Counted from the stretch's first letter, positions 494 to 50,200 are shown. The stretch is 64,000 bases of DNA from Bacillota bacterium (GCA_905372035.1 CAJPNN010000002.1:1497-65496), one strand, 5' to 3'. Made by a program: numbers and translations. The notes: generated by a model from the sequence alone, not told the origin.

Positions 494-4039
<3,546 letters not shown>

Positions 4040-8895: not shown

Positions 8896-8907
8896 GGAGG
8901 TGCTGAA

Positions 8908-9780: not shown

Positions 9781-9803
9781 TAAAAATACATTAACTGTTA
9801 ATA

Positions 9804-9842
9804 AAAAACACCGGTGCCGCCTTGCTGTCCGGTGTTTTTTTC
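9804..9842 (+). terminator. intrinsic terminator of the rnf operon
   Basis: AAAAAACACCGG - 14-nt loop - CCGGTGTTTTTTTT, 24 nt after the rnfB stop. Confidence 0.8.
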
Positions 9843-9984
9843 CTTTGCTTATAAGGATATTGGAAAATCAACACTTTTATGCTAAAATGTTTAGCAGCGG
9901 ACATATTTGATCTCAGTAATCAATAATCCATTTAATTGTCGACCGTTTATTCATAAATCTATTGATTTAAAGGGGTATTTAACA

Positions 9985-10392: not shown

Positions 10393-10531
10393 TTTTTAAG
10401 AAATGATTTTTTCATAGATAAATTATTTCTAATTAGAAAATAATTTTCAGTATAAAATGGATAATTCCTCTATCGGCTGTAAGGGATATTAACCATAAAT
10501 ATATTGTAGAAGAGCAGAAAGGTATATATAA

Positions 10532-11056: not shown

Positions 11057-11088
11057 CCTTATTATTTCAGCGAGTTCGGTACAAGTTT

Positions 11089-12087
11089 TCAAAGTTTCAA
11101 CTTAATCTCATCCTTCGTACACAAAAGTGCAACCAAAACCGATTTTATACTGTGCATTCGGTTTTCAGCCTGATCAAAAACAATAGAATTTTTTCCCCTG
11201 AAAACATCATCTGTTACTTCTCTTATATCTATGCCCTTCTCCATCCAATGTTTTGCCGTTTCTGTTTCAAAATCATGAAATGCCGGCAGACAGTGCATAA
11301 ATTTCACATCAGAATTTCCTGTTTTATCAAGCATATTTTGATCTACCTGATAAGCTTTTAAAAGCTCGACTCTATCCGGGGTTTTGTGTTCTTCTCCCAT
11401 AGATGCCCAAATATCCGTGTATATAACATCTGCACCTTTAAGTGCTTTCGGATCATCGGTAATGCTGACATTTCCACCTGCAAGCATAACCTTTTCCAAT
11501 ATCTCCTTATCCGGTTCCAGCGATTTCGGACCGAAAGCAACCATCTCATATCCGAACTTACATGCCCCGTACATGAGTGCATATGACATATTATTTCTTA
11601 TATCTCCGGTAAATACCAACTTTACATTTTCAATAGGTTTATTCACTTCCTCTTCAATAGTCATAACATCCGCAAGTACCTGTGTAGGATGATCCATATC
11701 CGTAAGCCCGTTCCAAACGGGAACACCTGAATATTTCGCCAAATCTTCAACTATTTTTTGTTCAAATCCTCTATATTCTATGCCGTCAAAAAATCTTCCG
11801 AGAACTTTTGCCGAATCTTCCAATGATTCTTTTTTCCCTATCTGTGAGCTTTTACTGTCTAAAAATGTGACATTACCGCCTTCATCATGCACCGCAACTT
11901 CAAACGAGCCTCTCGTCCTTGTAGAGGTTTTTTCAAACAACAGTACTATATTTTTCCCTTCCAGTAAGTTTCCTGTTCGTCCCGCTTTTTTCGCCGCCTT
12001 TAATTTGTGTCCGAGTTCTATGAAATATTTAGCTTCACTCTTTGTAAAATCCATAAGTGTTAAAAAGCTTCTTCCTTTAAGTTCCAT
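11089..12087 (-). CDS. argF: ornithine carbamoyltransferase
   Basis: 332 aa with STRTR, HPTQ, DIWASMGEE and FMHCLPAFH motifs. Confidence 0.92.
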   Translation of the reverse strand: MELKGRSFLTLMDFTKSEAKYFIELGHKLKAAKKAGRTGNLLEGKNIVLLFEKTSTRTRGSFEVAVHDEGGNVTFLDSKSSQIGKKESLEDSAKVLGRFFDGIEYRGFEQKIVEDLAKYSGVPVWNGLTDMDHPTQVLADVMTIEEEVNKPIENVKLVFTGDIRNNMSYALMYGACKFGYEMVAFGPKSLEPDKEILEKVMLAGGNVSITDDPKALKGADVIYTDIWASMGEEHKTPDRVELLKAYQVDQNMLDKTGNSDVKFMHCLPAFHDFETETAKHWMEKGIDIREVTDDVFRGKNSIVFDQAENRMHSIKSVLVALLCTKDEIKLKL

Positions 12088-12380: not shown

Positions 12381-12422
12381 AAAAACCGGCAAACGCTCCA
12401 ATAAGCGGCTCCGCCGGTTTTC
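12381..12422 (-). terminator. intrinsic terminator downstream of the DUF1836 gene
   Basis: AAAACCGGC ... GCCGGTTTT arms with a structured loop. On the minus strand it is followed by TTTTTAAG. It lies about 105 nt past the stop at 12528. Confidence 0.6.
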
Positions 12423-12527
12423 TAAATGCTTTTAATTTATTGTATCTGCGCTACTTCTTCAAGTCCCTGATAATTTTTTTCATATTTTTTTCGGGGATTA
12501 TCTCAGTATCGGAAGCAATCTTTTCTT

Positions 12528-26211: not shown

Positions 26212-29200
26212 TTATACATACTGAACCGGCTTTTTCCTGTTCACATCGTTAACATCTCTGTTATCTATTACGAACATCTTCTTGCCCATATGAGTAACAA
26301 GATATGTCAGATCTTTAAAGTCTACAACTCCGTCCTGGTTAAAGTCACAGTCAGCTCTATTCACTGTTACCGTTGCCGTAACCATAGCAGGCGCTCTGTT
26401 CATTCCTTCTCCGACAACTACTTTGGTGACTGAAATTGCAACTTTATCACCTTCGACTTCGACGGAAGCTTCAAGTTTATCAACTTTAGAAACATCATCA
26501 GTTTTTTCATCAAGTACATTTAAAGCATTTTCAGCAGTGACGTTGTCCGTGTCTGATTTAATATCAGTTGCAACAACACTTTCAAGTACTACCGACGTTC
26601 TTTCAATTCCGCCAATGCTTGTCGTCTTTATGATCGCTCCGGTGTCTTCGTCATAGGTTACGGTTACGGTATTCTGACCGTCCATGATCTTTCTGAACGC
26701 TTCCAGATCGGTTTCGTCTATAACATCTTTGCTGTCACCCGCATCTACAACATTTCCCGGCATCAAATCGAGCATTCCGAAGTCATACATAGCCTTAGCA
26801 AAAGTTCTTCCTATTTCGATATTGACGATCTTAAGCTTCAGATATCCCTTACGCTCTATTTCCATGCTGTAAGTTCCTTCCTGTCTAGGCTGTATCTCAA
26901 ATGCTCCGTCGGCTCCCACTTCATAATCCATAGCTATTCCGTCTTTTCCTGCAACAACCTGATTTCCTGAAGAATCAAATAACCTTATAACGGAACTTGC
27001 ATCCGGACCGTAAAGTCTAACCTTTCCTTTGATATACGTCTGTACGACAGCCTCCGATGCGGCAGTGTCTCTGATTACCGTAACTACATACTGACCCTTT
27101 CCGCCCGGATCACTTCCGGAAGCAGGCTTGTTTATTTCAAATATAAACTTGAACTCTTTTGTAGCAAGATCCAGATCAAACGCCTTTTTCATTTCTCTTA
27201 CCGACAATAACTTGTGTGCACTCTCTCCGTCTTTCTTCATAGAAAGATCCGCATCATCATTGCCCAGTATTGTAAATTCGATGTTTGTTTCAAGTGCTCC
27301 GACCTTTACCTTATAATCTCTCTTAAGCGGATCGAATCCCGGAATAAGTTTCTTGTAATCATCGTCAGGATCATCATCCGTAACGGAAATATCGGCCAGA
27401 TAAGCTGTATTCGCATATACTATCTCTACCATATACGTAGAAGGTGTAGTGCCTCCTCCTCCAACCGTCAGGAATACGAAGTTTCTCGTATCGTCTTCCG
27501 AAACAGGTACTTTTACAATCTTATTGTTCGAGTTTCCTGCGATATCCGTGCCGTTATAATTTACAACCACATTATCGGCAGGATTCTCCGCTACAGCCTT
27601 GAGATTTATCTCCTTCGTTCCTCTCTTGACGATTATCTTATGGTTCTTCGATTCAGGGTTGAATATGAAGTTTCCAATCTCTTCACCGTCGGTATAAGTA
27701 GGAACCAAGCTTTCAAGTCTTGCATTTCCGAACTTTCTCGCCTCTCTTGTAATCACGATCTCATAATTTCCGATCTTTCCTGTATTGTCAACAGCCTTCA
27801 GACGTATTACCGCTCTTGCATCATCATCTGCGAGGAAGTCTGCCGGAAGAACAAGATCCGGACTCTCAGCACCGCTTATTAACGGAATCTCTCTTCCGTC
27901 AGGAAGTACGGCACTTATTCTGTCGTCTGCGTTCTTTGCCGTTGCCGTGATCTTCACACTTCTATCCGTATAAGATATTACGGCTTCATATCTTCCTTTA
28001 CCTTCCGTGAACTTAGGTTTAAGTTCATATAATCCGTCTCCTTCCGCCGTTTCATCAGTCATTTTAAGATCCTGAAGTTCTATTTGAAGAATCGGCTCAT
28101 CGGTTCTCTCAACATGTAATCTGTAGTCTCCATGCTTTCCTTTTCCGTCATGGATTCTTACTACTACTTCAAAGTTCTTCCTATTGAGATTAAGACCTGT
28201 AAATGTTCTTGTATTTCCTCTTACGAAGTCTCCTCCGTCAATACTCATTTCGACATATCCGTCGCTGTATCCTATCTCGGAGTTTACGGTAAATTCTGTA
28301 GTATTGTTCGAAATCTTAACCGCATAATCTCTCAAAGTCTCCTTGAATTCAGGCTCCATAACGGCGTCTTGTACCCAGATCCTGTTCGCAATAGGAGAAT
28401 CGGTATTATAAACTTTCACATTATACTCGTTTATGTTTTCATAGCCGTTAGCGGAGAACTTCGTAATTCTGAACTTGAATACCGAGTAACCTTTTACCTT
28501 ATCTATGTTCTGTTCTATCATGCTTCCCAGATCTTCGACTACGGAATAAACTCCGTTTTCTTCGTTATAAAGCTCGATGAAACTGTTTTCGGTATCAGGT
28601 TCTGCAAACATATAAACCTTCTCACCGCCATTTGTTGCAGCATACTCGAACTTTTTCTTATCGAAGTTCGGTATCAGATCATTAGACGTAATCGTAGATC
28701 CGTCGTTGTTAAGCATTATCTTACTGATATACGGCTCAAACGGTTTATCCTTATCTTTATCAAGATAAAGAACATATACTTCTTCTGAAACCTTATCGCC
28801 TGATACCGCTCTTATATCAAATCTGTCTCTATCAGTATTTATCTTAACCGTGACAGCTTCTCCCGACTTGATCTTTTTGCCGTTTATGAAGTAATCCTTG
28901 CCGTCACCTGCTTGACCTACAGTAATCTTGGCACTTTCCGCACTTCTTGCAATTATTGCATTGCCTGCATTCTCCGTAGTTGCAAAGTCATATGTCGCAT
29001 TCTCTACCGCAATCTGATTTATGAGCTTTGTCTTAGGCTTATCCATCAGTGTCAACGAATACCTCTGTACCGAATTTCCGTTTGTAACGGTAACGATCGT
29101 CGTCTTCGTCTGTCTCGATGTAAAGTCTATAGTTCCCGCTCCGCTTATTTCCGCTCCGTCGGCTGCCGCACTTACCTTAAGCTCAACTGTGCTCATCGAC

Positions 29201-32200
29201 TCAGGAACGTAAGCGTAATAATTAATCTCTCTTGTATTGAATACTGTTGTAAGCTCTACATTTGAGAGTTCAAATCCCTTGAGATCAACATTTTTACCGC
29301 TCAGATCTCTTCTTGATACGGATAATGTATATGTTGATGATGCAACCGTCGCATTGCTGTCTTCAAAGACTTCTATTCTCAAATTCTTATTCGTCGTACC
29401 TGATATATCCACCTGCATATAATCGGTTCCGCTGAACACCTGTCCGTTTATCTTGACAACGTTCTTAGCTTCAAGTGCTGTAGGAAGTACTCCTATGGTT
29501 TTTACTCCGTAAGGAACCGTTACATAATAGCTGCTCTGATCCGTCCTGAATACAGGCGCCATAGTTCCTTTATCCACACTCAGATTCACAAGCTTAGCGT
29601 TATGATCTTCTGTAGGTCTTATTACTTTCACAATATAGTGAACCTTAGTATTCTGAGTCCCCATAGCGGCAGTTCCTTTAAGCACCACGTCTATGAAGGT
29701 TTCTCCATAATTAAGCTCCAGGTTCTGACTTTGTGCACCGCTCAGCACAGGCATATTGTTTATCGTTATATTCGATCCCGAATAAGGTATCAAATTGATA
29801 AAGTTTGTATCGGCATCCACCTTAACCTCATAATACTTGATATCCGAAGCAAACAACGGTGTAAGCTTATACTTGGCCTGCTTAACCTTGAGGTCGTCAA
29901 GTTTCACAGTTCCCGGTTTTTCAACGTCGGATCTGTTCACAATTATTGTGTACCACTTATTGTTGCCGTTATTGTCTTTAACCTCAACAATAATCTCATG
30001 GTCTCCCACTGTATTTAACGGAACGGTATATTTATTTCCTGCACCCGCATTAGCCTTATTTATAAGGACAGTGCTTCCAACGCTGTTAGGCAGAGTTACC
30101 TTAATATCTACAGAATCCTCACTGTTAGGAACGTTGAGGTAATAGCTGTTCACATTTTCCTTAAACGGAGGTGTAAGTTCATACCTGGTTCCCGCCTTGT
30201 TAAATGCTTCAATGTTTATTCCCTCGGCAACAGGATCATCCGTCTTATTTCTGAATACAGTTACAACATAATCTCTCGTTACTTTCGTTCCGTTCTTGTC
30301 AACAACAACTCTGAACTTAACAACCGACTCGCCGAATTTCACATTCTTATAGTTGAACACGTCTCCGGAGTTGACATCCATAACCTTCGTTCCGTCTACA
30401 TAAACTTCTACATGTCCGCTGTCAGGTGCTCTCATGATAGGAGTGAACCAAATATCTTGTGCATCGGCAGGATATGTTATGTAGTAGTTGGAAATATCAC
30501 TGTTGAATATAGGTGCAAGTGTTCCTCTCTTGTCGTGTTTCAAATCTACAAGTTCTGCCGTATAAGGCTCAACCGCTTTGTTTATATTGAGTACATAAAC
30601 CTTCTTCGCACCCTGTACTTCGCAAGTTATAACTATTCTGTTGTTTCCGGAAACAAGACGTATTCCGTTAGTCTTTATGAATCCTAATCCTTCTTCATCA
30701 TAGTCCCATGCTTCTGATCTCACCGAAATTACAGCCTTGTCATCCTTCGCCTCTATAGTGAGAGCGAGTTCCTCAACCTTGTTTGTAACCGACAGATTAT
30801 AACTTGTTATATTGCTGTCGAACAACGGTGATATTGACGCAACGTTTGTAGTTATACTCTTAAGGAGCGGATCTCCAACAACAAAATCAGTTTTTTCTTC
30901 AGCTTTTCTGTTTATTGTCAAGCTGTAGTATTTCTTTATAGTAGGCTTTTCTCCCGCATCTGCATTCACCAATGCCTCTATCAAATATACGTTATCGCCT
31001 ACATCAAACGTAATTTCTGTCGGGATTCCCGAATTTATGTTATTCTGCAAAGTCCATGTCTTTCTATCGTTCTCAAGCTTATAAAGTTTAGTGACAACGC
31101 TTGCTCCTACATCTCCTACAACCGCTGTGAGTTTGTCTTTTGTGACATTATTCTCAACCGTTGCAAAATAGTTACCGTCCTTTATACCTTCACTGAAATC
31201 TCTCGTAAGTTCAGTTTTCTCCAAACTTATGCTTGTAAGCCAATCAGTATCAGGATTCAGGTTGGACTCTTTATCTTTTCCGAAGATCACCGTATACTCC
31301 GCCAAAGGTACTCCTGATGATGTTCCCTTGTACTGTACCGAGAATACAACTCTCACTTCATCATTCGCATGTAACTGCTTGTCGATCAATACCAGAGAAC
31401 CGTTGCCGCTATCAGCTTGCTCACCGTTGACTATCTTCTTGTAGAACAGCTGGTATTGCTGATCTATAGGTGTAGCTTCAACGAAAACAGGGTCCGTTTT
31501 TTCATTCAGTTTCGAACTTATCGGCATATAATATGTCTGTATATTCTTGTCGAACATAGGTACAAGGTGATGATATCTGCGATCTTTTTCCTTTTCTCCG
31601 GTATAAACTCTCAAGTCTTTGAGCAGAGATGCCTTTGCCGGAAGCTTAAAGTTCACTCTCACCTTATAGATATTGGTCACTGTCTTATCTTCGGATGTAA
31701 CCTCAATCTCCATAATATTTATGCCCGGTTTTAAATTCTTAAGCGTAAACTCCGTAGTATTTCCAAAGCTGTTTACCGATGTATTATCTCTTATCTTTAT
31801 CGTAGCTTTAGGATGTTTTGCAGCTATCTTGTTAAACTTGACGCTGTCTTTTTCGACCGTCATCTCATAAACTTTGTTCTTAGGATCGAAGTCAGGTTTG
31901 ATCTTTGTCTCCGAACCGACATCAAGGTCAGATAACTCCGCTTCGTTTGAAAGTCTCTTTATGAGCAAGTCATAAGGTTTTTCAATTCCGCTTGCTTTAT
32001 CCTTAACCACAATCTTCACAAGAGATTCATTCTTTGAAGCATCGATAAGAATTCCGCCGGTAAATCTCTTCTCTGTTCCGGTATCAGGATTTTTATAGCT
32101 TCCCACACCGACTTTGACCTGTTTACCTTCTTTCATAGTCGTTATTCTTATCTTCGGTGAAAGTTTGAGATAAGGAATACCGATCTCAAATCTGTTCTCC

Positions 32201-35200
32201 GCACTGTTCCATGTAGCTGATATAGGATTTGCATACTTAAGCGCACTGTTCACAGGCGATGAAGGATCGAATGTTCCGTCTCCCGCATCCATGTAAACGC
32301 TCAGTATATCTCCGTCAGCTTCCACGACCTCCAGTTTGTAATTTTTTTCAACGACTACCGAACCGTCCGTTACAGCTACTTTAACAGCTACCTCGTTAAC
32401 ATTGCCCGGTATATTCTTTGTATCCATCTCCATAACGGCATAGTCTCCCGGATTTGAAATTACACCGTTATTCAGAGTTGCAACAGCCCTCGGATCATTT
32501 CCTCTTACTTTTATCTCAGCTTTCGATCCCGGAACCACATATGCCCTGAATGTATTATTTCCTACATATGCGGCGTTGTTTCCGTTAACGAGTACATCTT
32601 TTAAATCTACATCTATAGGTTTTCTGTAAATCGTAAGTTTGTAAGTCTCTACCGTACCGTTCTCACTCGTAACTCTTATTTCAAAGTTGTTCGAACCGTA
32701 AGCCAGAGAAACTTTTTCATTAATTTCTACAAGCTCGGATCCTATCTGATATTTATCAACACCGTTTCTGAATCCTAACAGAGTAACTCGGGTTCCCGCC
32801 CCTACGTGATCATGGTTCGCTCTTGCGTGTATCACGGCTTCTTTGTTATATGATTCCACATCCAGTGTATATCCTTTGACTTCAGGCTTAAACTCAGGCT
32901 CTATGTTATGGTCTTTAACACTGAGCTCCCTTAATGTCGCATCTGACGACGTTTTATGTATCACTACATAATATGTCTTAACAAAATTAGGAACCATCAG
33001 ATATACAGGTATTCTGGTATAGTCGTTTGAAACCTTTACATGTGCAGATACATGTTCTCCGCTGTCCTTTTGAAGAACTTCCACTCCGTTACCGAGAGGT
33101 TCCGCGTCACCGATCTTGATCTTTGTAGGATAGTTTGCAGCATCCAGACCTAACGATGTAAAGTATGCATCTACCGCCTTCTTGGTTTCAAGAGCCCATG
33201 CGGAAATATCGAATTCATTAACATCTTCGTTAAGTTCAACTTCATACTCGAGTATATCTTTTTTATACACTCCGTTCTTGAACGGTGCCGGTACACTGCT
33301 TCCTTTCTTCGTAACCTGAAGTCCGTCAAGGAATACATCCGCAGGTACATAGTGTATATAAAGCTCATAGTAAGATGATGATCCTGCTGTAATAGTTATG
33401 TTGAATCTGTTTGTTTCCGGAGGCATAGGATTGTCATCCTTCTTCCTCTCCAATCCGCCTACGGTAGCCTTGAGTCTTCCTGTTGAAGGATCAATTCCTC
33501 TCCATTCATTATCTGCACCGCCTGCCTCTTTGACTCTTACCATCTCTATCATTGAATTCTTATTAACTGCATAAATTTCAACATTTGCAGTTCCTTTGTC
33601 CGTACCGTTATGCTTAGGACTTCCATAAGAATATGCCTCGTATTTCACTCTTCCGTCAGCAGTTCCGTACTTAACGGCTTTGTGACCGTCAACATAGATC
33701 ACACCGAGGTTATTATCCTCCTGATCCTTTTTAACCGATACGGTATATTCTTTTATAAATTGTCCCGCCGCATCATAAACCTTTACAGGGAAGTTCGTAA
33801 GAACCCCGCCGCTCAGCGGAACTTTAGCCGTAGCAATCGGTCTGTCCACAGTAATCTTCTGCAATGCTCCGCCGTTTATAGAAAGCTGATATCCCTTCTC
33901 TCTATCCGCTACGGTAACTTCAACGTTCGCACTGTTTACGTTGAACGGAAGCGCATTCCTTCTGATATATGTATTTCCCGCTCTTTCAGTTATTTCATTG
34001 TTTACTCTGACTATGAGTTCATAATCATAAGTGTACTTTGAAAGATATAACTTGTATTGACTCTTCGCTCCCGACGGCGCCTGTACAACAACATTCACTT
34101 CCGTCACGAGAGAACTTGTAAGAGCCACTTCCGTTATATACTCACCCTTTCCGTCAGGATTTGCAACACCCTCTATACTGATTACGGCTTCAGGGTTTTT
34201 AGGAACAATCTTAACCGTAGCCTTTTCAGCAGGATGTGCCGCATCCTTGTTAGGAACGGATGCAAAATATGTAGTAAGACCTGTAACTGCTGCCGATTTA
34301 AATCTTTCTACAGGGTCGTCCACGCCCTTTACAAACATATCCTTTATCTCTGTTCCGTCAGGTATGCTGACAGCTCTGAGATAATAATCCTGTTCCGCTC
34401 CGCCTGTCTTTGAAATAACCTTTATCTTGAGGACGTATTCACTCTTGTCCGTAAGCATTCCTATCTTCTGTCCGAAACGAAGCTCACCTTTGACCGATTC
34501 ACCTGTAAGCGTCTTCATATCTTCATCGTAAAGCTGTATGATCGTGTCCGGATCTTCCGTCACAACTCTGAACGTAGCCGCTTCGGAACCCATAGGCATT
34601 TCCGCAACGTACTCGTTCATCTTAACAGGTGTAGCAGTAACAGGTGTAAGCATCATAGTTCCGGCAACTTGAGCTTTTGCCTCAACTATCTTAAGCGCTA
34701 TATTGTTTGAAGCCTTTTCGATGAACAGTTTATAGTTCATAGTGGCTCCGTCTTTAGCCGTAACTTTTACCGGAAGTACAATATTATCCGAACTCATGAA
34801 CGCCGTAGCATCGGCTTCACCGTTTCCGCTGCCTAAAACGGCTCCGTCCTGACTTATATCAATCTTGGAATCGCCGAAGTTTGTCTGCGTCTTGATATAA
34901 GCATACTTAACTACAGGATTTACGAACTTCTGATAGTTGTCTACCGTACGTTCTTCTCCGTCTATCACTTCTTTTGTCGTATTCTTAAATGAAGCTCTCT
35001 TATAGGTTCCGTTCTTTGTCTCCGCAACATTGAATACAAGCTGCAAGTCTGACCTTATTTCTTCCGGCTTAAGTCTTCTGATCTTAAGCTTTGTTTCTTT
35101 AATCTGATCAGGATCACCGGTAACGGAGTTCGAATCTTTTGATCCTACGTTTATTGAGAACTCTCTTTCATTACCTACAAGGATATCGTCAAAGCTAAGG

Positions 35201-38200
35201 TCTTCATATGTATCAGTATTCTTAACAAAAGGTCTGCTTCCGGAAACAAGCTGTATAAATTCTCCTTCTGCAAGAGTCGTAGCGCTCAAGTTACCCTTAA
35301 GCTCTCCGCTTCCTATATCTATGCTGAACTCATAATGATTATTCGGATTGACTTTTGCAAGACGTCCGTTCAGCTTAACTTCTTTAACCTTAAGTTCACT
35401 TGTTTTTCTGTGAAGAACTATGTTGTATGTTGCAGGTGTAGTATCGTTAGGAGTACTCTTTACCTGAACGGAATACGCCTTAGGTCCGTTTGCAAATTCA
35501 TCCTTGTCAAACGGCAGATTCACCTCGAGTTTGCTCTGTGCGGTGAAATCTCCATGTGGGAGACTCATACTTAAAACTGCTCCCGGATCATCCGCAATTA
35601 TATTCACAGGTACTATCTGTGAAGCATAAGGAACATCAATATCGATACGCTTGTTAACGTGATCTACTTTTCTTATAGTTTCAACCACTTCCCCGTTGCT
35701 GTTTTTAAGCTCTACCTTAAGTATCTTCCTGTTTTCGGATATTCTCTTTACCCTTACAACATAATCTTTACCTTCGGATTTTCCTGTTGCCATCTCGTCC
35801 TGAGATCTTACTTTGAAGTGGAAATCATAGCTTTGTCCCGGCTTCAAATTATTTATAAGCAGAGTCTTCTCTCCTACTTCATATTCATTCTTTCCGTTTA
35901 TATCCACTCCCGCATATTCATGATCCGCCTTGACTTTGATTTCAATAGTTCTGATATCATTTCCTATCTCGGCGACATACATGTTCTCTGCAGGGTCGAA
36001 GCTTGCAGGTGATGCAGAATCAAGTTTTCCCGCAGGTGCCACCCATACGTTCTTAACTTTTCTGTTATCATCCACCGTTCTGTAAATATCCAGTCTGTAT
36101 AACTTTCTAACACCTGTTTCGGATGTTACGGACATGGATACCGTTACAGGATTTTCGGAATTGGCATCTTTCGTATCGTAACTGTAGCTTGATCTGTAAG
36201 CAAGCTGCGGACTAGGATTTACAATTCCCGGTTCAAGTTCACCGTTCTCATCGGCGAGTCTTACAACAGTTTTTTCCGTATGCGTCTGAGCCTGGGCGGT
36301 AACATAAGTCTTGATATTCTTTTCAACTGAAAGCCTGTAGTCTTCACTTGATACAAAACCCTTATATACCGTTATCTTTTCTCCGGTAAAGCCGTCAACA
36401 TCTTCACCCGACTGAACAGCTCTTGTCGTATTCACACCTCTTATCTCTATAAACTCAATATTATTGTTAACTGAGGATACATCGATATGAAGTATATTGT
36501 CGCTTACTTTACGTCCTTCACTGCTTTCATCCTCTGAAATTACAGTATAAGGAATATCGAGATGCTTCTCTCCTTCTTTTATAGGAACAAGTATGCCCTT
36601 CACCCTGTCATTAGGATCGTCCGTTGCCCCTACATAAGTTTTACCTTTAAATACTATCTTGGCCTTAGGTGCAACCGTCTTCAAATACACGAGTGCATAT
36701 TTTCCTGCAAGAGGTTTACCGTCCAGATCTACCTGATCCAGTGCGGTTTCAGGCGTCTCAAATATATCAGTTATATGTTCATCCACTACGGTTTTCTTTC
36801 TGTACTCTTTGTTCACCGTAGATTCTCCGTAATCGATATCCGTATTCTGAGACTGTCTGTATATATGAACTCTGTAATAAGCCACCTGACCCGTCTTTGA
36901 TCTTGCAGTAAGTTCAAAGACGCTGTCTTCAGTATCTTCGGCAACCTGTGCCGGAGCGTTTATCGCAAGTTCCACATATGTATCATGAGCAAAGTCGTTG
37001 TTTATATAAACAGTTCCGCTCTGATCAGGCACATTGTTCATCAATGATACCACAGGTTCGTCTACACCGAGTGCATCCTTAAGTATCTTGAACCTTACGG
37101 TATTCGCATGCGATGACGGCACGCCGAAGTAGAAGTTGTTATAAACATGACCGTCAGCTTCAAGCTTAGGTATTGATTCTTTAATAGCAACATCATCTAC
37201 CACAGGAATTAATTTGTTATTATTTGATTTCTGTTTTATAAACAGATTATATGTAGCGACAGTTCCTATAACCCCGTCATCTCCGAGTGTCGGTTCATGC
37301 GGATTTGCAAGGTCGTTAGGTACTCCCACCTGCACTTTGACCATTGTCGTCGATGCATCTTCCGTATTAAGCGGAAGCACCTGGTAAGTATTCGTCGCCT
37401 TCACCCATTCAAGCCAAACTATATCAGGATCATCATTGGCATAGTTCGATGCCTTCCTCAGATATTCGGCATATGAACTGTCCGTACTTGCCGGCTTCTT
37501 AAGAACACCGATCCTTACATACATATCTCTAAGCGTAGTATTTGCAGTAACGCTCACATTGTCTTGCGGCAATATGTCTACATGATAAGCCCCGTCTCTA
37601 TATTCCGCATCCTGATTGCCTTGAAGCGCATTATAAATTATCAGGTTCTTGAGCGAAACATCAGCTTTATGTACGTGAAGCTTATGTGCCGCTATGGTAC
37701 CGTCCGTAGCTCTCACGCTTATATCTATGACAAACTCATTTGCCGCCATAGGAACATCTGTAAGTTTATCCTGATGCTCTTTATATGTCACATGGCTTCC
37801 GACTTTAACGCCTGCCATAAGTGATTTGGAAATCGCCTCAATATCCACAAGTGACGCCGTGGACGGAACCCAAACATGGTATTCACCGTCTTTAACCTGT
37901 GCCGCTTGTGAAGTTTCTTTTCCGTTTTCCTTATAATAAGCCTTTATGCTTTCAAGCTCGGTATTTGAAGTCTTCTTGTAAACCCTCAAATAAGATACTT
38001 TTATTTCCTTTGAGTCCTCACTCTTTGTCTTTATCTCAAATACCGTAACTTCTTTATCCGCAAGTCTGAATTTGTTTACGGACCATACGTTAAGATCCTG
38101 TTCAACAGGGTCCGGAGCGGTATCCATACCTCCCGTGATCTTTGCAAACGCATTTGCGGTTTCCGCATAAATATTTGTAATTACCGGTGTGCTGAAGTCG

Positions 38201-41200
38201 CTTACCGCATCCTTAAGTATGTATGTATAAACATCATGTTCCTTGCCGTTTATAGTTTCAACCTTCTTAGTATTTACAAGGTTTTCACTGTCATCCACCT
38301 TGAGGGTCTTGATGCTGTCGTCAAGGTTCTTTCTGGTTAATTTAACAGTATATCTCGTCACCTTAAGATCAGGATCCGTAACATCGATCGGAATGTAAAT
38401 ATCCTTTATCATAGTAGAAATTGCAAGCGAATTTATCGTCTGCTTATATGTGTCGTTATCTACTCTGTTGATCTTTAATATAGCATTCTTATTCAATGCT
38501 CCCGCACTTATTTTTATATGATCTGACGAATTTGAAATAATCATGTTGTAGGTGTTTGAAGCATCTTTTTTAAGCTCCGTTTCACCCGCACCCGCATCAA
38601 CCTTGACATAGTCAAGACCTGTCTGATAATCAGGTGTCCTTATGATCAGCTTATACGATGCGCTGCTCTGACCGTTACCCGATGTCACAACAATCCTGTA
38701 TTCATCAATCTTAAGTGCATCGATTTGAAGAGCATCATCGGACCAAACATTTGATATCCCGGACTTTGATACAAGCTCGTTATTGTCTTTATAAAGCTTG
38801 ACCGTACCCGCAGGTGCCTTTATCACAACTTTAGCCGTTGCATTCTCCATCGTAGGATAAGCCGACTCATCCAGATATGCTGTATATGCGCCGTTCTTAT
38901 ACTCTATAACGGTATCGTTTACAGCGACCTCATCAAGCCTTGCAACTCTGTTTTCTCTTGATATCACAAGGTCATAATTCTTCTTGGTATTGTCGGTTGC
39001 AACAACAGTTATTACTTTCTTTATTTCCTTCTGATCGAGAGGCAGAGAAACATCAGCGTTAAATTCTCCCACCTGAGAGTCGCTCACACCTTCAAGACTT
39101 ATCTTCGCTTTTTCGTTGCTCGACTTGATATAAAGTGCAAGATCCTTCAAATCATCTCTTACATAAAGCACATATTTGGTATTCTTGTCAGGATCCGTGC
39201 TTGAAACCTTGTTTGCAACAGTCTCGTCAGGTAAACCTTTCTGACCGATTACTTTGACGATTTCAGCATCGCTGTTTCTCTTAGCCATGGTTAAATCATA
39301 AACCGCCGTATCCGTTCCTCTTGACGCAACGATTTTATATTTGTTCACAGGATCGGTCAGGTTGGAAAGCGCTACGTCTATACTTTCCGCTCCGTCAGCT
39401 ATCGCATCAGGATTTCCGACTTTGTAAAGCTTCAAGTTTACATCGGAGGAATTTGCAACTACAGTAAGCTGCCCCTTTGTATCCGCTGCAGGCATCAAGG
39501 TATAGTAATCTCCCTTGCTGTCCTTTTCCACTTCTCTTGCGCTGTTTTGGCTTTCCGGCTTAAACAGTACGCTCGACAGGTTAAGACGATTATCCTGCTT
39601 CGTTATTATAAGTGAAGCGTTTACTTTCATATCATCTGTAAACGGATATGTGCTTACAACCAGCGGAACTACCGTTTCTCCTACACTATTGAGTTTTACC
39701 GATACGGTATCCTCATGGATCTTCTCCGCATTTCCCGCAATCTTAACTTTAGCCGCAGTACTTGAAGCTGTCAGTGTAACATCCGCCGCCGAAGCGTTAG
39801 GTTTAACCTGATAATAATATTTATCTCCCTGTTTAAGGGCATCATTTCCATTGACCTTTACATTCTTAATCGTGCTTATTCCCTTAACTATGAGCAGCTT
39901 ATAATCTTTCTTCGTTTTTCCGTCTCTTGCGGTCACGTTGAAAATAAGCTCCGTTACATTTCCTGCACAGTGACACGATGCCGTAAGCACTCCGTCAATT
40001 GAGTTTATTCCTTCGAACAGGATCTTCGACTGTGCATTGTTAGCCTTTATCTTAAGCAATCCGGTCAAAGTTTCAGGAGGAACGTTTACGATATAAGTGG
40101 ATTTATCCCAATCCGATATCTTGGCTTTCTTTCCTGCAAATTCAACCGACTGAATTCCCGTATCGGCTCCCTGAGACACACTTATTATTATTCTCTTAAC
40201 TTCGCTCTCAGCCGATCCGTCGGAAGCTGCCACCTTAAATCTGTATTCCGTATCTCCTACAGCATTTATCGGAAGATTTTCAAATATACTCAATCCCGTA
40301 CCGATCTTCGGTGCATTTTCCGATATTCCGTTACCCCAAAGTGTTATCTTTGAGAGTGCGCCTACAGGTTCTATTGAAATATCTACAGGCTTTCCTATCT
40401 CAACCTGTGCGGCAAATATGCCGTTTTTCTCTTCAATCTTTTTGCCGTCAACATGCAGACTCTTGATTCCTATCTTCTCCAGATCTCTGTAAACGTACAA
40501 AGTATAATCCTGCTGTGCATTTCCTGAAGATGATATTACTCTGAATCTGAATATATTAACAGGGTTTGATTCAGGATCACCGAGCTCTCTCGTTACATTG
40601 AGCTCCCCTTTAGCCTTCTCGCTCGTAGGCTGCTCATTTTCAAGCATAACGATATCCGCAAAACCGTTTTGAGTATTTATTCTTATCTTCGCAGGATTGC
40701 TGCTGAGCAAGTCGTTCGCATCAACTTTCGACGGTATGGAAATCTCATATATCGTAGGGTTGTTCGATCTCGCCTTTGCAGTTCCTCCGTTAACCGTTAC
40801 TCCTGTGAGTGCGGTATTGTTACTGTTCTTGAAGATCTTAACACTGTAATCTCTGAATGCATTAGGTGTTCTCTCGGCATCAACATACATTTCGGCGTCC
40901 ACTCTGAATCCGATAGCCGTCTGTTCTCCGATCGAAAGTTTGTAATCTTCGCCGTTATTGTTCCAATCTCCTGCCGGAACGGTAACCTTTACACCGTTGA
41001 CATATGTTATATATGCACGACTGTTTGCGACAAATTCTACAGGAAGCTTATTAAGGCTGTTATCAACCTTAAAGATGTATTCCTTTCCTTCGTTTATAAC
41101 ATCCGTACCTAAAACATTGTTCACTTTTACTCTATGAACCGAAATATCATCAGACATACCTCTCAACAGGAGATAACGTTTTCCTATAACCCCGCTGTGC

Positions 41201-44200
41201 GATTCTATTTCTATTCTGTAGTATTCTACAATTCCGAGTTTTACACCACCCTTTAAGATGAAGTTTCTCGTTCCGTCAGGCGCAGTGTCGTTATCCCATT
41301 CAGCCGCCTTGAGTACATCCGTATATTCCGCATCGTCATTAGGTGCAACAACTCTTCTTACACTCAATATCTTAGCGTTTTCATCATTAGGTCTGATCTC
41401 AATCTTGACATTTTTTTCAGGAACATACGAATCATACTGTATGTCTTTATCCATCTTTACGTTGAAGTGTGAAACTTCTCCTCTGTTTGTAACTATGCTC
41501 TTGAGAGAAACATCACCCTTCTTTCTGAGCATATTCAAACTGTAGGCTTTGATATCTCCGTTTTCGGCCCTTACTTCAACTGAATATTTACCTTTATTTT
41601 CATCGGCATTTATATTTCCTGCAAATGTCGAATCGTGCTGTGATGTCCAGTCGGAACCGATCCACGCTCCGGCTTTATCATAATATCCCACTCTCAAAGT
41701 AGCCTTGCTTGCAGGTACTACGGTCAATCCGAAGTCTTTGTTATCATCTCCGAAGTAGAATGAGTATACTTTATCTCCTGTCACAGGATCCTGTTTTTCC
41801 ATCGCAGGAACATTTGTAGTTGTCTCGAAGATCTTTAATATACCGTTATCTCCGCTCCTCCTTGTGAGGTTCAGAGTATACCAGCCTTTTCCGTTTACGG
41901 TTGCCGGCGTACCGTTTTGTGCCGTAACATAGATCTTTACAACAGCTGAATCTCCGTCAACATTTATAAGCTTTGATGTAACTTTGACATCTACAGGAGG
42001 ATTTGTCTCTATTCCGACCTTGGCAAAGTCATCTTCCGCTACTGCCTGGATATTTGCCTGCTTTTCTTCATATGACAAGTAACCTTCAAATGTATTTGTT
42101 GCGGTATTCCAAACAGCTTTTCTTCCGTTCACCTCAACCGTGATCTTCGTGCTTCCGCTCTTAGCCTTGAATATCAGCGGAACGATTCTTTCATAAGCCG
42201 AATCTTTAGCCTTGAGCCTGATATTAAACTTAAGTCCGTCAGGGTTGTTAGGATCAAGTTTTGAAATATCAAACCCTCTTACCACAAGCAGATTGCTTCC
42301 GCCGTTAGGTGCAACAATGTTTCCGTCAAGCGATCTTATCTCAGGAAGCGCATTTTCCGTAGCCTGGAGAAGCACGTCAGCCGATACTGCCCCGTTATCC
42401 ACATATGCTACATAGTTTCCTTTGCTGTCCGGTTTGATCACCGTACTGTTCACCTTAACTGAAGTCAAGCCCAAATCAAGATCGGAAACCGTCACATAAA
42501 TCTTGTACTCCTTGATATCTCCGCTCTGAGACTTAACCTTCATAGGTACTATAAACGTATCAGGGGTTCCGTCATTATTTGCATCAAATGTCTTGTTTGT
42601 GAGTACAACCCTCTTAGTATAAACTCCGTCGGCATCCACACTTGAGAAGTCACCGCCGTCTATACTTACCTCGGAAGTCTTATCTTCCGGTCTTACGCTC
42701 AGAAGCTCAGTATATATAAGCTTGTTCGGATCAGCCTTATCTACAGGTATAAACACATTATATATACCGTAAGGTTTACCGTTATGAGTTTCTAAAGACT
42801 CGGTCGTATCTTTGTTTTCGTAAGAAGTTCCGATATTTGCGATTACCTCTTTAACTGCCGTATTGTTGCTCTTCATTCTAAGCACCAATCTGTACTTTGC
42901 AGGTGTTTTATCGTCATCGCTCTTCTTAACCGTTATATTAACTGTCGTCTCTTTGCTCTCAAGAGCTCTGTAAAGATAAGTGTTAAGTTCTGCCGCCTGC
43001 CCCGTGTTCGCCTTGTTATTTACAGAAGCCGGTGAACCGTCCTTATCACTGTAACCGTCTATGGTAACTATATAGTTGTTGTTCGAAGCGATCGCCTTTA
43101 TGCCTGCATGTGACGCCTTTGCATCCACATACGCTTCATAAGAACCGTCATTCTTGGCAGTCGGCGCTTTTCCGTCAACCGTCAGAATAATTCCGTAATC
43201 CTGTGCAAGTCTCTTCAGAATCAATCCCGCAGCCACTGCAGAATTACTGTCTGTCGCTTCTTTATAAAGTTTGACGCCGATTTCTTTTTCACTTTCCGAA
43301 ACAGGCATATAAACCTTTTTCTCGTTCTTGGAAAGCTTTCTGTCTCCTCCGTCGATTTCAACATAATAGTTTATTAAAGTTCCCTCCGCTCCTACAAGTA
43401 ACTCCGAAGCATTAGGCAATACCGTGTCATATATGTAATTTGTTTCCGATACTGTAGGGTCTTTCGCTTTATCTCCGTTTACGGTAATCTTCTTTATCGC
43501 AGGAGCAGTCTCGTCTCCGATTATGGTAAGAGTTATAGTTCTCTTCGTATTTCCCGACTGAGATTTGATCTCAAACGTCAGAACCTTGTTTGCAGTCTGC
43601 AAGTCCATATCGGTTATAACATCACTGTATATACCCTGTTCATATCCCGAACCGTTAAGCTTAAGTATGCTTGCAAGTTCATCATATGTCTTTATCGTAA
43701 ATGCCGCAAACTTGGTAGTGTTAGGTATTTTTACCTCCCACTTGCTGTTATCGTTCGTCGGCTTAGCATAATACTGACCTACTTTTATGTAATCTATTTC
43801 GGTATTTTCGGACTTGGTCCTTATAACCAGATAATACGTTTTGCTCGTATAGCCGTCCTCCGCAGTAACAGTCACTCTGAACCTGTTTATATCGGACTTG
43901 GTATCAAGACTTACATCATCCCAAACTCCGCCACCTTTAACAGCCTTACCTATCTCTTCATAGCTGTATTCAACAGGTGATTTGCCCTTGGCCGGAATCA
44001 TTCTCTCCAGTTTTACCGTCGATTCAGGCTTCACGGAAATCAGGGTTATGTTCGCCTTGCTGTTAAGGACATTCGTATTTGCAATATATGTATAAGTATC
44101 CTTTGCACCCTTGGTGAGCGATGTTTCGTCAACCTTAACGGATGCCAGATCCATATTCAGATCCACCTTCTTGATTATAAGTTTATAGCCGTCTTCTTTT

Positions 44201-47200
44201 GTCAGCTTGTCCGATGCCGTAACGGATATAGGAACAGTGAACTCGTTACCCAGTTCCATAGGGTAGTTATTTCTTGTTCTTGCACCTGTAATATTATCAA
44301 TAGAGTCGTAAGCTCCGCCTATAAGTATCTCATGAACCTCATAGCTGTTAGGAGTTACTCTGATATCAGCTTTCGAAACGTCTCTTCCGACAACGATATT
44401 GTACTCAAGCGGATTGAGCTTATTGACAACAGCTTCTCTTGCAACTCCGTCAATGATAAGCTCCACTTTTGTAACTGCGGTGTCTCTCGCTGCGGTCTGA
44501 ACTATGATCTTGTAAGTCCTTATCGCACCGTTCTCGGCTTTCACATAGAACGGTATCTCCAATCCCTTATTGAGATCGGTTCCTGATATATCATATCCCG
44601 GCAGCATTATTTCATTGTTGTCGCTATATAAAGCACCATCCGAACCGAGAGGATTTGCAAATCTGTCAACCGCCACCTTTGCAAACGGACTGTTGGCTTT
44701 TATTCTTATAGGAAGTTTGCTCGTTCCCTCCGCAACCGAAACTACATAAGCTCCTTTTGCCGTATTATAACCCACAGGTCTGTCCATATCATTTATTCTG
44801 ACAAGTTTAACATACCCGTTAGGATCAATAGTATTATCATTTGATTTCGGTACTATTCTCAGCTTATAAATCTTTGTCGCCACTCCCTCTTCGGAAACAA
44901 CTTTTATTCTGACTACAGGCTGATCGTTCATCAGTTTAATAGTCTTTAATGCCCTGTTCGTCTCCGAAGGATCAGTATTTTCATTTACGAAATCTGCAGG
45001 AACGGTTCCGTTTGCGATACCGTCGTTTATAGTTACAGTAGCGGAAGGAGATGTTGCAACAACTTCAATCTGTACAGTTGCTCCGTTATTTATATCCTCC
45101 TGATCTACACCGAGATAGTAATCATACTCCGAAACTCCCTCAGGCGCTTTGACCGGCTTACCCGCATATTTAACATTTGAGATCTCTCTTATAGTATAGA
45201 TAGACGTATCGGAAGAAGCCGCCTCGATTATAAGGTTGTATTCCTTAACAGGATCTATTCCGTCAGGACTCTTAACCGATATCTTTGTTACAGTTTCCTT
45301 TGCTCCCGTCGCAGGATCCACCAGAGTAAAGTTCTTATAGACAACTGACGGTGCTTCGCCCGTTACGAGAGTGTCTTCTTCAGGCTTCTTGTAATCTCCC
45401 TCATCTCCTACTCTTATATATGCATCTTTGTTGTTAGGAATTACTTTGATCCATGCGCCTTCTTTATCATAAGGAACTTTTACTCTGTAAGTTGACGTAT
45501 TCGCATCATATTTTGCAATTTGCTTTCCTGATGTCGTCTGTACTATAACTCCGTCATTTATTATCGTCTTATCCTTTGAAAGTTTCTTGATCTTTACTGT
45601 AAATGTCTTCGTTGTTCCGTCCTGAGCTCTTACATGTATATACTTAACCGTAGCTTCAGGTTCATTTGCCTTGACATCCTTCATTTCCGCCTTGTTCCCG
45701 GCTCCGTTTGCGATTTCAAACGTCTTGCTGTCGGAAATCGTCACTGCCGCAAATTTATCTTTAGTTTCAGCAGTAAGAGTTCTCACCGTATTGTCCGATC
45801 CGTCGGCTGAACGAGGCAACAAGAAATCATAGGTGCTTTCATCGGCATCTAAATTCAGCTTATGTTCACCGAATTTCACATCCAGGTCGACATTTGAAGA
45901 CTGCCTTATAACTATGATCTTATAAGTAGCCTTGGCATAAACACCTGTAACGCTGTCATGTACTTTCGGTGTAACGGTAGCAAAATATGTAATTTCATTC
46001 TGGAGAAGCTCTTCTTCAACGGTTGCGGAAGGTGCTCCCGCAGCATTCTTGGCCGTGTCTTCATTCTTATCCAACGCGATAAGTGCTCCTCTTGCCATAG
46101 GGTTTGCATTAAGCCTTATCTTCTCGACTTTGCCTTTGACTTTTACTATATAAGCATCTTTCTCATAGTCATAAACCGCTTTAAATTCTTCTCCTGCAGC
46201 TCCTGTAGCTTTTATTATTTCATCAGCTTTAACTTCTCCCAACCTGTTGTCGGAATCCTCATTGTACAACCTTAGGATATATCTGTTGCCGTCATTTGCC
46301 GACTCTCCGTCAGGAATAACGTGTATATCTATATCCTGAGTTCCGTCAGGCCCGAAGTTCACTCTGATATTCTGAATGCTCGCATTGAGCGAAGGCGCTG
46401 TATCTCCTATCTTGATATATGATCCGTATGTAGCCGTAGTAACCATAACTCTTGCGGAATCCGCCGTCTTGTCCACCTTATAGCGATAGATTCCCTGAAC
46501 TCCCGGCATCTTCTCTTTCTTCACATAGTTGGCATTTACGTATACCATAGGATCTTCAGCTTTTGAAAGTCTGTGTATTCTCAAAGTATATTGAAGACCT
46601 TCGTTTCCTCCCGCCTTAAGCTGGACCACAGCCGTATCCGTTCCGCTCTTATCCGCAAGAACAAAGTCAGGATATACCCCGTTCACAACCTTGGAATAAT
46701 CCAAATCTCTGTTAGGCGCAGCCGCTTTATACTGAACCTGTGCCTCACTGAGTTCTCCTATTGTTGTAATATCCACCGACTTAACGTCTTCCGGAAGATA
46801 AACATCATAGTGAAGATCATCCGTCATAACGGCTCTGTAAGTCTTTCCGTTTGCAACGCCCTTGCTTGTTGCCGTGATCTCTTTGATAGCCGTAGCCGCC
46901 TTCTTCTTATAAATAGTAAGCAGATAGCTCATGCTCTTATTATTATCCGCAGTTATATTTATAGGAACGGTGACCATCTTATCGTTTTCATTAAGAGTCA
47001 CTGTCTGAACATCAAAGTTCTTAGGATGTTTATGCGCCTCATCATGATCCGCATTTACCTTCTTGTTGTTTACCGAAATGGTAGATGCAAATCCACCCTC
47101 TCCGTAAACATATATCTTGAGGTTTTGTGTAGCATCATCTACAACGGTAAAGTACTGGTTCGTATTTCCTATTTGTATAGCATTCTTTATACTCGTTATG

Positions 47201-50200
47201 CTGCCGTCTTTAAACTTCGTATGATCAGCCATATAATCTATGCCGCTTTGAGATGTATCTATCTTAAGGGCTTTAAGGCTTACATCTTCCGAAAGTATCG
47301 TAGCGACAAGTTTATATATTCCGTCATAATAGTTGATATTATCAGTTTCATCATGATCATCAGGTCCGTCAGGAATACCCGCATTGTGTATCCTTATATA
47401 GAACATCTCTCTGATCTTGCTGACAGGAACGTCCGTGAACTCGAAGTACCCTTTGTACTTATCTCCCGGCGTGGAGTTCTTAGATTTATTTCCTATAGGC
47501 GTTCCGTTCTTATCCTGAAGCGTAATATCATCCGTATTTACCTTACTCTTAACACGAATTACGGACTTATCTCCCTCAACCATAACCTGAACGCCGTAAA
47601 TTCCTTTTATACCCTTCAAGTTGTAGATTATATTTCCGTTAGGAAGAACTGTCTTTTCATATTCGTCGCTGTCAAGGAATCCCTTTGTAACAGCGTCATT
47701 TACCGCAAGATCCTTAGCCACGACGTGTTCCATGATGATCTTGTCAGGTCTGATCAGATCAGGATTTACCACCTGTATCTCAGCCTTTGCAACATAACCT
47801 GAAACTTTATCGGTTATAGTAAGAAGTGCGGTACCCTCTTTAACTCCGAGGAGCTTCTTATTGTCAATCTGTCCTGTATTAGGATCATTAAAGAATCTTG
47901 CTATATTACCTGTTCCGGCATTAGCACCGTGAACATCTTTCTCATCCGTTATCTCCCATTTATATTCTGTCGCATTCGGTTCTATATCTCTGAACATATT
48001 GAACCTTGATGCCGTAAATTCAACATTTTCGGTTCCACCTGCAGCAATTCTGAAGCTTTCAGGCATTATCTTCATCTGTTTTCCGCTGACTAAAACAGGA
48101 GAATATTTATATGAGTCTTCAACATTTGTGAATTCTCCGCTTTCTCCGCTCTCTCCATTACCGAGCTGACCTTTATCGTTTACACCGAACGAGTACAGAT
48201 AACCGTCATTCTTGAGTACATATGAAGCTGCTCCTCCGGCCGCAATGAATATCGCATTTCTGTTGAAATATGTAACCTTAATCGGTTTTGTCTGCGAATA
48301 TCCCGTCTCTCCGTTCGCTCTTCCGACTCCGAGACGTCCGTAATCTCCGTCACCCCAAGCATATACATCGCCTTCTTCAGTCAATGCAATATTATGCGTA
48401 GCTCCTACATCAAGATCCAGTACGCCTCCGAGATCTTTCACAAGTGTAGGTCCGATCACAGGATTTTTATCCCCTGTTCCGAGCTGTCCTCTTGCATTAT
48501 CTCCCCAAGCTATAACTCTTCCGTCATTAAGGAGTGCCAAACTGTGTGACAAACCGTTATATACTCTGCTTATCTGACCCTCGAACTGACCCATATTTAT
48601 TCTTATAGGTGATCTGTAGCTCTGGTTACTGTGTTCTTCGGAACTGATCTGCTTGTTGTTGTTAGCTCCCCAAGCCCATACAGTTCCGTCATATCTCAGA
48701 ACTATGTTGCAGTTTCCGCCTGCGCCGAAACTTATATCAATGATCTTGTTTATACTCTTCACTCTTACCGGAACTCTTTCGAAATCCTTCATAGATCCGG
48801 TTCCGAGCTGACCGTGACTGTTATCTCCGAATGTATAGATATCGCCTCCCCCGGTCAGAATCACGCTGTGATCTCTTCCGCCGAGAATCTTTCTTACATT
48901 TGAGATATTAGGAAGCATGGTCGGTGTATATATAGCATTTTCGAGACTGTCAAGACCTGTCTGACCTCTCTGGTTCGATCCCCATACATAGACTCTTCCG
49001 TCCGCATCAATTGCCAATGAATGGAATTCTCCCGCAGCTACCGAAACGATCTTCTTTCCTCTCAGTGCTATGATTTCCGTAGGTTCGCTCTTGTTTCCGA
49101 GAACATTATTTCCGAGACCCAGCTGACCGTAAGCATTTCCACCCCATGACCAAACCGTTCCGTCCGCTCTTATCGCAAGCACATGTGCATTACCCGCGGC
49201 AACCATAGGCATAGCCTTGAATTCTTCAGGGATTACCCTTACTATACATCTCGACTTCATTCCGCCTTTTTCAACGATAAGCTTTGCAACACCCGGATTT
49301 CTCGCAGTTATGTTTCCTAACGGATCCACTATCGCAACTTCCATGTTGCCTATTGTAAATTCCGCTTTCGTATTGTTTGAAACTACATCGCCGAATATGT
49401 TGAAGTCATTTCCGCTGAAAGTCTTAACGAGATATTGTTCTCCGACTCTTAACAGGATCTCCGATTCCTTTATAAGTTGTTTTCTCTCGCCTATTCTTAC
49501 AGGTACATCGCTTAGGGTTTCGTTGAATTCTAAGTCCGCTCCCTGAGAATAGTCACCGAATCCGTATACATTTCCGGCATTATCCACGGCAACACTGTAT
49601 CCCGTTCCCGCACTTACTGATGTCAATACGATGTTGTCATCTGTAAACTTGGTATTTCTGATAAATGCACTCTTATTTAATTTATCGCCTACTCCGAGCT
49701 GTCCGTAATTATTCGCTCCCGAAACATATGCTTCTCCGTCTCTGTTCATAGCGACGGTATAATCTTCACCTGCGGAAACCTCGGAAATATATGTGAGCGT
49801 ATCCACCTTGGAAGGTGTCGACGAACTTCCTTCTCTTCCGAGTTGTCCTTTGTCATTCTTTCCGAATGTAATGAGATCTTCTCTGAATGTGACAACCGCA
49901 CTGTGAGCTCCGCCCGCACTTATCGCTACCGCCGAGCTTACCTTGCTTACCTTTGCAGGTCTGTAGATATATGTAGAAGCACCTTCCACTCCAAGTCTTG
50001 CATTTTCATAATTTCCTGCCGCATAAACTTCACCCGTAGATCTTAAGAACAATGAGTGTTCATTTCCTGCGGATATGGCAGTTACACTGTTTATAGGTAC
50101 AAGTGCAGGTTCTTCAAGGTATACGAGGTTATCCGAAATTCCGAGCTGACCTCTGCTGTTATCTCCCCAGCTGTAAACGTTTCCTCTCTTATCAAGCGCA

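Follow-up and report, generated by a model that had tools for sequence, protein, structure and literature searches.

Rods of tandem immunoglobulin (Ig)-like domains that extend the reach of a protein are known from the extenders of SiiE and MpIBP, from LapA-type bacterial Ig-like (BIg) arrays and from the Ig arrays of titin, each with tens of domains. Neighbouring domains share low identity in titin and SiiE, and the repeats of MpIBP are near-identical. Giant proteins of a second kind, the RCC1-type, have been described from Oscillospiraceae in human, mouse and rabbit gut metagenomes; these are described without a membrane anchor, and other giant Clostridia proteins bear dockerin repeats, with proposed roles in adhesion or predation (West-Roberts et al., bioRxiv 10.1101/2023.11.21.568195). 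Cadherin-like domains have 0 occurrences in the text of that preprint, and in the literature searched PF12733 is mentioned in passing only. Here we describe a giant gene in a stretch of 64,000 nucleotides of DNA from a Bacillota bacterium (GCA_905372035.1, CAJPNN010000002.1:1497-65496; hereafter the window), in which an RCC1-bearing half is joined to a long array of PF12733 units.

The array, composed of 61 tandem PF12733 Ig-like units (Table 1), probably forms the stalk, or extender, of a giant extracellular protein that exceeds 1.3 MDa and belongs to an anaerobic, uncultured member of the Clostridia. The open reading frame (ORF) meets no in-frame stop up to the edge of the window, and the true N-terminus is therefore beyond it. 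The residues IKKSSGFN precede the listed TTG start (window 63976-64000, minus strand), and the protein is thus longer than the 12,587 aa listed; the run free of stop codons is 37.8 kb. Pfam divides the giant protein into three parts, aa 1 to ~5300, aa 5406-12300 and a tail of 287 aa. RCC1 accounts for ~43% of the visible protein and the PF12733 stalk for 55%.

For segmentation of the array, a hidden Markov model (HMM) was seeded with six clean units and iterated to a stable model of 114 positions, with the match columns fixed by the Stockholm RF line and the --hand option. This model gave 60 matches in the 6,895-aa array (i-Evalue <1e-3 for 53 of them), which cover aa 5441-12300 in a nearly unbroken series; 35 of the 59 junctions between neighbouring matches comprise three residues or fewer. 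The only large gap in the tiling, aa 8769-8913, holds a degenerate unit with inserts, and the total is therefore 61. This is exactly the number estimated by eye in a preliminary description of this DNA, which had been made from the sequence alone. That description had also given a unit length of 100-125 aa and a closing Y-x-[LIV]-x-[LIVF]-x-[RK] motif in each unit, and both statements hold in part. The HMM envelopes are mostly 95-125 aa long, but range from 70 to 129 aa, and two insert-bearing units measure ~145-168 aa by eye. The strict motif Y-x-[LIVMF]-x-[LIVMF]-x-[RK] is enriched, with 37 occurrences in the array versus 3 in the preceding 5,400 aa, and 86-94% of the aligned units have the closing Tyr, but the strict form is not universal.

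PF12733 was the sole Pfam family detected in aa 5406-12300. It scored 111.1 bits over aa 5406-8826, 63.7 bits over aa 8827-10339 and 234.8 bits over aa 10340-12300 (gathering cut-off 24.2 bits), with 0, 1 and 7 individually significant stretches, respectively. Because the first two regions, which together form block 1 in Table 1, hold just 0 and 1 such stretches, most of their units are recognised only collectively. HHalign matched block 1 (profile A1) with block 2 (A2) over the full length with a probability of 96.4% (E = 1.4e-9). The A1 profile was searched by HMMER against 1.84 billion representative proteins and matched 7,418 of them at E <=1e-3, of which 571 reached E <=1e-30; many of the matched proteins have lengths of 2,000-7,800 aa and contain 20-48 stretches that fit the profile. 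Three top matches were scanned with Pfam and are PF12733 arrays (33, 22 and 9 significant stretches), one of which terminates in a dockerin plus M23. A profile search of the PDB sequences returned nothing significant for either unit type. A word-index protein search gave no match for units 7-8 and one 867-aa PF12733 protein only for units 49-53.

AlphaFold2 was run on unit 7 with an alignment of 55 paralogous units, and on units 7-9 with 16 non-overlapping paralogous triples. Unit 7 was predicted as all-beta with 9 strands and no helices, at a predicted local distance difference test score (pLDDT) of 78.5 and a predicted template modelling score (pTM) of 0.71. The three consecutive units were predicted as sandwiches, with ~5 linker residues joining unit 7 to unit 8, and this model matched tandem Ig, cadherin and titin fragments in Foldseek at E ~1e-7. 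The conserved columns of the unit alignment are alternating core hydrophobics, two Tyr, a D-G turn ahead of the last strand and one linker D/N; a second D-G-type position is found in block 2 only. Classical cadherins bind Ca through DxNDN, DxD and LDRE motifs. The classical cadherin repeat (PF00028) had no Pfam match in the array, and an acidic Ca cluster of the cadherin type between units is absent from the conserved columns, which hold only single D/N-rich columns. On the predicted models, the units are Ig-like beta-sandwiches of PF12733, "cadherin-like" in the Pfam sense only. Pfam, HHalign, the A1 profile search and AlphaFold2 with Foldseek concur on the PF12733-type beta-sandwich that the preliminary description had proposed, and the structure prediction it had called for turned up no unrelated fold.

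The units are of two kinds. The canonical opening (L..L.V....L.P.F.....Y.v.V) had been noted at 27-34 kb, and a lack of L-x-P-x-F at 40-47.7 kb; this agrees with our counts: from aa 10340 onward (window <=32958), 13 of the 18 units contain L-x-P-x-F, and none of the 42 HMM-defined units upstream does. The L..V.V strand and the Y...V element of the opening are kept in both blocks. A canonical PF12733-like HMM, built on the units of P0003 and P0009, two arrays verified by Pfam, gave a mean score of 24.8 bits for units 43-60 and 9.7 bits for units 1-42 (Mann-Whitney p = 5e-4), and within the blocks there was no trend along the array (Spearman -0.06 and -0.14). The proximal-to-distal gradient of the preliminary description is instead a step between two blocks that meet at aa ~10340 (window ~32958), each of them flat, and this score pattern rules out gradual decay toward the propellers. 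The entire stalk of the RCC1-bearing relatives described below consists of units without L-x-P-x-F as the sole type, so this type is not the product of local decay. In P0038, the closest orthologue, L-x-P-x-F is limited to the last ~10 units. The array looks composite, not eroded: ~43 divergent units typical of RCC1-dockerin(-M23) giant proteins would be followed by 18 canonical PF12733 units.

Two proteins pair with the array unit by unit and in order. P0038 (5,996 aa) is collinear with the giant protein at 29% identity over giant aa 8657-12449, its units 5-47 pairing with giant units 22-60. P0025 shares 30% identity over giant aa 6449-8254 and 8283-10535, and its units 4-37 pair with giant units 12-44. 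The paired positional orthologues are 25-46% identical versus a background of 15.5%. Because the units pair in order, the array and its unit order predate the split of the P0038 and P0025 lineages; judged from these alignments, the array is ancient.

The architectures of the 150 best A1 profile matches were surveyed, and in 16 of them RCC1 propellers are followed by 15-23 units. The layout of these relatives is a signal-anchor-like segment, RCC1 propellers, 15-23 units, a CarboxypepD_reg-like domain, a dockerin and, in some, M23. Six complete relatives (P0013, P0030, P0032, P0044, P0110 and P0121) begin with a Lys-rich and then hydrophobic segment, a putative signal peptide or signal-anchor. 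In the C-terminal tails of three relatives, Pfam detected CarboxypepD_reg and Dockerin_1 in all three (18-30 bits), Dockerin_1 reaching 29.3-29.8 bits in two (cut-off 22.9), and Peptidase_M23 in one, that of P0032. By eye, HxxxD...HxH ends of the M23 type were seen after the dockerin in P0032, P0044, P0022, P0030, P0106, P0110, P0121 and P0040. The M23 ends of the relatives suggest a lytic enzyme delivered by the stalk. A further array protein, P0003 (4,166 aa, likely Bacteroidota), has NHL beta-propellers, 33 PF12733 units and a CHU_C type IX secretion signal; the design of propeller, stalk and sorting signal therefore recurs with other propellers and other sorting systems.

Pairwise protein identity among the units, over the match columns, averaged 15.5% with a maximum of 33%, and was flat along the array (0.15-0.17 at separations of 1 to 30). 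Such divergence between neighbours is expected in long tandem-domain proteins, because it lessens misfolding between neighbouring domains. Block duplication is excluded by the separation-independent identity and by the lack of any pair above 33%. At the DNA level, no non-self blastn match among units was obtained at E <=1e-3, no tandem repeat with the period of a unit was found, and the direct repeats present are only 25-34 nt long and at chance level. The strong DNA divergence between units seen in the preliminary description is thus borne out, and the identity matrix that it had proposed as a check gave no sign of block duplications, nor did the DNA comparisons show near-identical repeats.

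The exact protein encoded by the downstream ArgJ gene was found on at least 20 contigs of independent metagenome assemblies, each with the giant gene, which runs off the contig there and is called at 12,150-12,171 aa. Samples that carry the gene include DRR582136, SRR27599793 and ERZ21659798. Three of the contigs (L003, L004 and L006, Logan contigs of 52,190-52,249 bp) break at almost one position, close to window ~62.7 kb and within the first visible propeller. The RCC1 half of the window contains no long DNA repeat that would explain the contig breaks; repeats there were rejected as their cause, since only imperfect matches of 40-85 nt (~76-90% identity) are present. Six independent contigs match the window along the final 8.65 kb of the gene at 99.5-99.7% identity with zero indels, and their differences gave a ratio of nonsynonymous to synonymous polymorphism (pN/pS) of 0.04-0.10. 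Each unit is probably maintained under purifying selection.

These data bear on whether the gene could be an artefact of assembly or annotation, namely a repeat that was collapsed or expanded, or else a pseudogene. Misassembly is common in very long repetitive genes, and all public contigs found end inside this one. Against this stand the lack of collapsible DNA-level repeats, the agreement of six independent assemblies without indels, the low pN/pS, the 37.8 kb without a stop and the collinearity of distant orthologues, and we consider an artefact extremely improbable for the gene as a whole. For the C-terminal 8.65 kb, the contig comparison indicates that artefact and pseudogene are excluded. 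The array is old, maintained and genuine, as the preliminary description had held.

Pfam matches in the propeller half are PF25390 (1971 bits, 20 stretches), PF00415, PF13540 and PF02368. By eye, ~11-12 RCC1 propellers were counted, each after a Big_2-like spacer; the stretches of Big_2 significant by Pfam are two only, and weak matches to HL_N-beta (hyaluronate lyase N-terminal) were seen in the propeller spacers. GC content is 0.40-0.42 in the stalk and 0.44-0.465 in the RCC1 half, and falls from 0.455 to 0.415 over the last 2 kb of the window. At the other end of the protein, the tail shares 41% identity with that of P0038. The two dockerin-like halves are separated by an insert of ~110 aa, acidic and rich in Thr and Val; in P0123, a stalk protein with a related tail, the two dockerin halves are adjacent. 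The C-terminus (...THMGKKMFVIDNRDVNDVNRKKPVQYV*) has neither an LPXTG motif nor a hydrophobic stretch, and no M23 domain is present in the giant protein. The dockerin-like end suggests attachment to a cohesin partner.

Table 1. Features of the giant gene, in window coordinates.
Feature	Position	Strand	Basis
Giant ORF, 12,587 aa as listed	26212..63975	(-)	Reading frame runs on to window base 64000
N-terminal half, repeated RCC1-like beta-propellers with Big_2 in spacers	47761..63975	(-)	Pfam; translation
Whole array, 61 tandem PF12733-type Ig-like beta-sandwich units, aa 5406-12300	27076..47760	(-)	Custom HMM tiling; Pfam PF12733
Block 1, 43 divergent units that lack L-x-P-x-F (42 defined by the HMM and the degenerate one), aa 5406-10339	32959..47760	(-)	Pfam, mainly summed score
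Units 7-9, aa 6130-6495, three predicted beta-sandwiches	44491..45588	(-)	AlphaFold2 pLDDT 74.9, pTM 0.63; Foldseek
Degenerate 61st unit with inserts, aa 8769-8913	37237..37671	(-)	E = 0.0035 alone, opening half; closing YNLFIKQ by eye
Block 2, 18 more canonical PF12733 units, aa 10340-12300	27076..32958	(-)	L-x-P-x-F, Pfam
C-terminal 287 aa, weak CarboxypepD_reg-like sandwich then dockerin-like module	26215..27075	(-)	PF13620 E = 0.012; EF-hand_1 E = 0.023
First dockerin-like loop-helix, aa ~12410-12432, ...DSKDVIDETDLEAFRKIMDG	26680..26748	(-)	Alignment to P0038, P0123
Second dockerin-like Ca-loop plus helix, aa 12544-12566, DFNQDGVVDFKDLTYLVTHMGKK	26278..26346	(-)	EF-hand_1; relatives' tails

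The arrangement of these parts suggests how the protein might work. The stalk would separate the RCC1 propellers, as candidate binding heads, from the C-terminal module with its CarboxypepD_reg-like and dockerin-like parts, and the dockerin-like module may plug into a cohesin-bearing partner. With its domains joined by linkers of roughly 5 residues, the array would serve mainly as a long spacer. An Ig-like domain spans ~4 nm, at which the stalk would be ~0.25 um long. The preliminary description had pictured a rigid stalk that holds the propellers away from a C-terminal anchor; the array, with its short linkers and no acidic Ca cluster of the cadherin type, may be rigid, and the weak, split dockerin-like module is a putative anchor at most. 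Several points weigh against this reading. The spacer role is drawn from the architecture only, and the N-terminus, and with it the secretion signal and topology, lies outside the window. Dockerin_1 (PF00404) was unmatched in the giant protein even at E <=10, EF-hand_1 was matched at E = 0.023 only, and the dockerin-like halves are split by ~110 aa. The Foldseek matches of the single unit were weak (best E = 4e-3, TM ~0.4), although uniformly to Ig-like sandwiches; because of this weakness, the fold is assigned as generic Ig-like and not specifically as cadherin.

Either end of the protein may face away from the cell, because the relatives have an N-terminal signal-anchor-like segment and some have an M23 end. 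A signal-anchor at the N-terminus could hold the protein at its own cell, so that the stalk projects the dockerin-like end (M23 in relatives) to dock to or attack other cells. Giant genes have been tied to cell-wall degradation and adhesion (bioRxiv 10.1101/2023.11.21.568195). The Lys-rich and then hydrophobic starts of the six complete relatives fit this reversed orientation, as do the tail of P0032, with Dockerin_1 and Peptidase_M23 by Pfam, and the M23 motifs recognised by eye in P0044 and several others. On the other side, the giant protein is without M23 and its own N-terminus is outside the window, the hydrophobic starts of the relatives may be signal peptides that are cleaved off, and the dockerins of cellulosomes usually attach their own protein to the scaffold. 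We regard the reversed orientation as possible but the less likely of the two.

The divergence of the units may also be read in terms of ligands. In its Pfam description, PF12733 is a frequent fusion partner of glycoside hydrolases and of SLH and discoidin domains, with a proposed role in carbohydrate binding. Each unit might then be lectin-like or resemble a carbohydrate-binding module (CBM), the array as a whole presenting a multivalent surface on which diverged units have differing glycan specificities. The very large divergence between units is in keeping with this, and Glucodextran_B was also matched in two canonical array proteins. However, the conserved columns are those of the core, the two Tyr, the D-G turn and the linker D/N, with no conserved surface patch; positional orthologues are just 25-46% identical, and Pfam detected no glycoside hydrolase or CBM family in the giant protein. 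A carbohydrate-binding surface is therefore an unlikely explanation of the array. A broader proposal, which we hold to be similarly doubtful, is that the units without L-x-P-x-F form a distinct PF12733 stalk subfamily of clostridial long-reach tether or attack proteins, of which the giant gene would be a derived member with the peptidase lost, the stalk tripled and the dockerin split. Were this so, the layout of the subfamily would be signal-anchor, RCC1 propellers, stalk and dockerin, with or without M23, and the 61 units would have arisen by joining two types. The protein could then be a tether or scaffold between cells (~0.25 um), of a length unprecedented in Gram-positive gut bacteria.

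The genes flanking the giant gene are housekeeping genes (argC/J/B/D, carA/B, queF, mreB, rnfCDGEAB and PFOR). Window 494-12087 contains PFOR, a complete rnfCDGEAB operon and a gene of the aspartate/ornithine carbamoyltransferase family with OTCace domains. No cohesin, sortase or secretion genes were found in the 26 kb downstream of the giant gene. By their content, the neighbouring genes point to the chromosome of an anaerobic member of the Clostridia. CarB is 70-75% identical to proteins of uncultured Clostridia metagenome-assembled genomes, mostly Oscillospiraceae/Ruminococcaceae of animal guts, and metagenome-assembled Oscillospiraceae/Ruminococcaceae appear to be the nearest genomes to the host. 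A Clostridia origin of the giant gene is likely. A search of the GTDB genomes with the C-terminal 563 aa returned no relative and no close species representative, and an exact 37-mer at the window edge had no match in the JGI metagenomes.

Neither the domain family nor the general architecture is new; what the giant gene adds is an unusually long, composite member among the giant clostridial proteins. Its array is among the longest of non-identical Ig-like domains in a bacterial protein, with 61 units versus a maximum of 46-53 among the 150 best matches. It is also a natural example of how a long array is kept up: there is no DNA homology between units, their order has been kept at ~29% orthologue identity, and purifying selection is strong. 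The picture of RCC1-type giant genes is extended to at least one lineage of gut Clostridia in which more than half of the protein is a PF12733 stalk with a dockerin-like end.

Several known systems share parts of this design. Arrays of PF12733 such as P0003 (33 units), P0009 (22) and P0045 (~53) are of the same family, in tandem head-to-tail order, and some likewise have a long array together with propellers at the N-terminus and a module for sorting or attachment at the C-terminus. The array described here is longer, and two thirds of its units lack L-x-P-x-F and are individually below Pfam significance. The RCC1-type giants of West-Roberts et al. (bioRxiv 10.1101/2023.11.21.568195) have in common with it the Clostridia origin, a giant protein predicted to be extracellular and many RCC1 propellers, but theirs are RCC1 over the full length, whereas here RCC1 makes up less than the stalk. 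The RCC1-stalk-CarboxypepD_reg-dockerin(-M23) proteins (P0013, P0032, P0044, P0110, P0121 and others) have the same order of modules and the same type of unit without L-x-P-x-F; in contrast to their 15-23 units and, in some, an M23 end, the giant protein has 61 units, no M23 and the insert of ~110 aa in its dockerin-like module. Foldseek links the units to tandem fragments of titin and cadherin. The arrays of titin and of the adhesins consist of I-set or BIg domains and not of PF12733, and the conserved acidic Ca clusters between domains are missing here. The adhesins use type 1 secretion (RTX), unlike the Gram-positive-type Clostridia with a dockerin-like end considered here, and the near-identical repeats of MpIBP contrast with the ~15% identity among the units of the giant protein.

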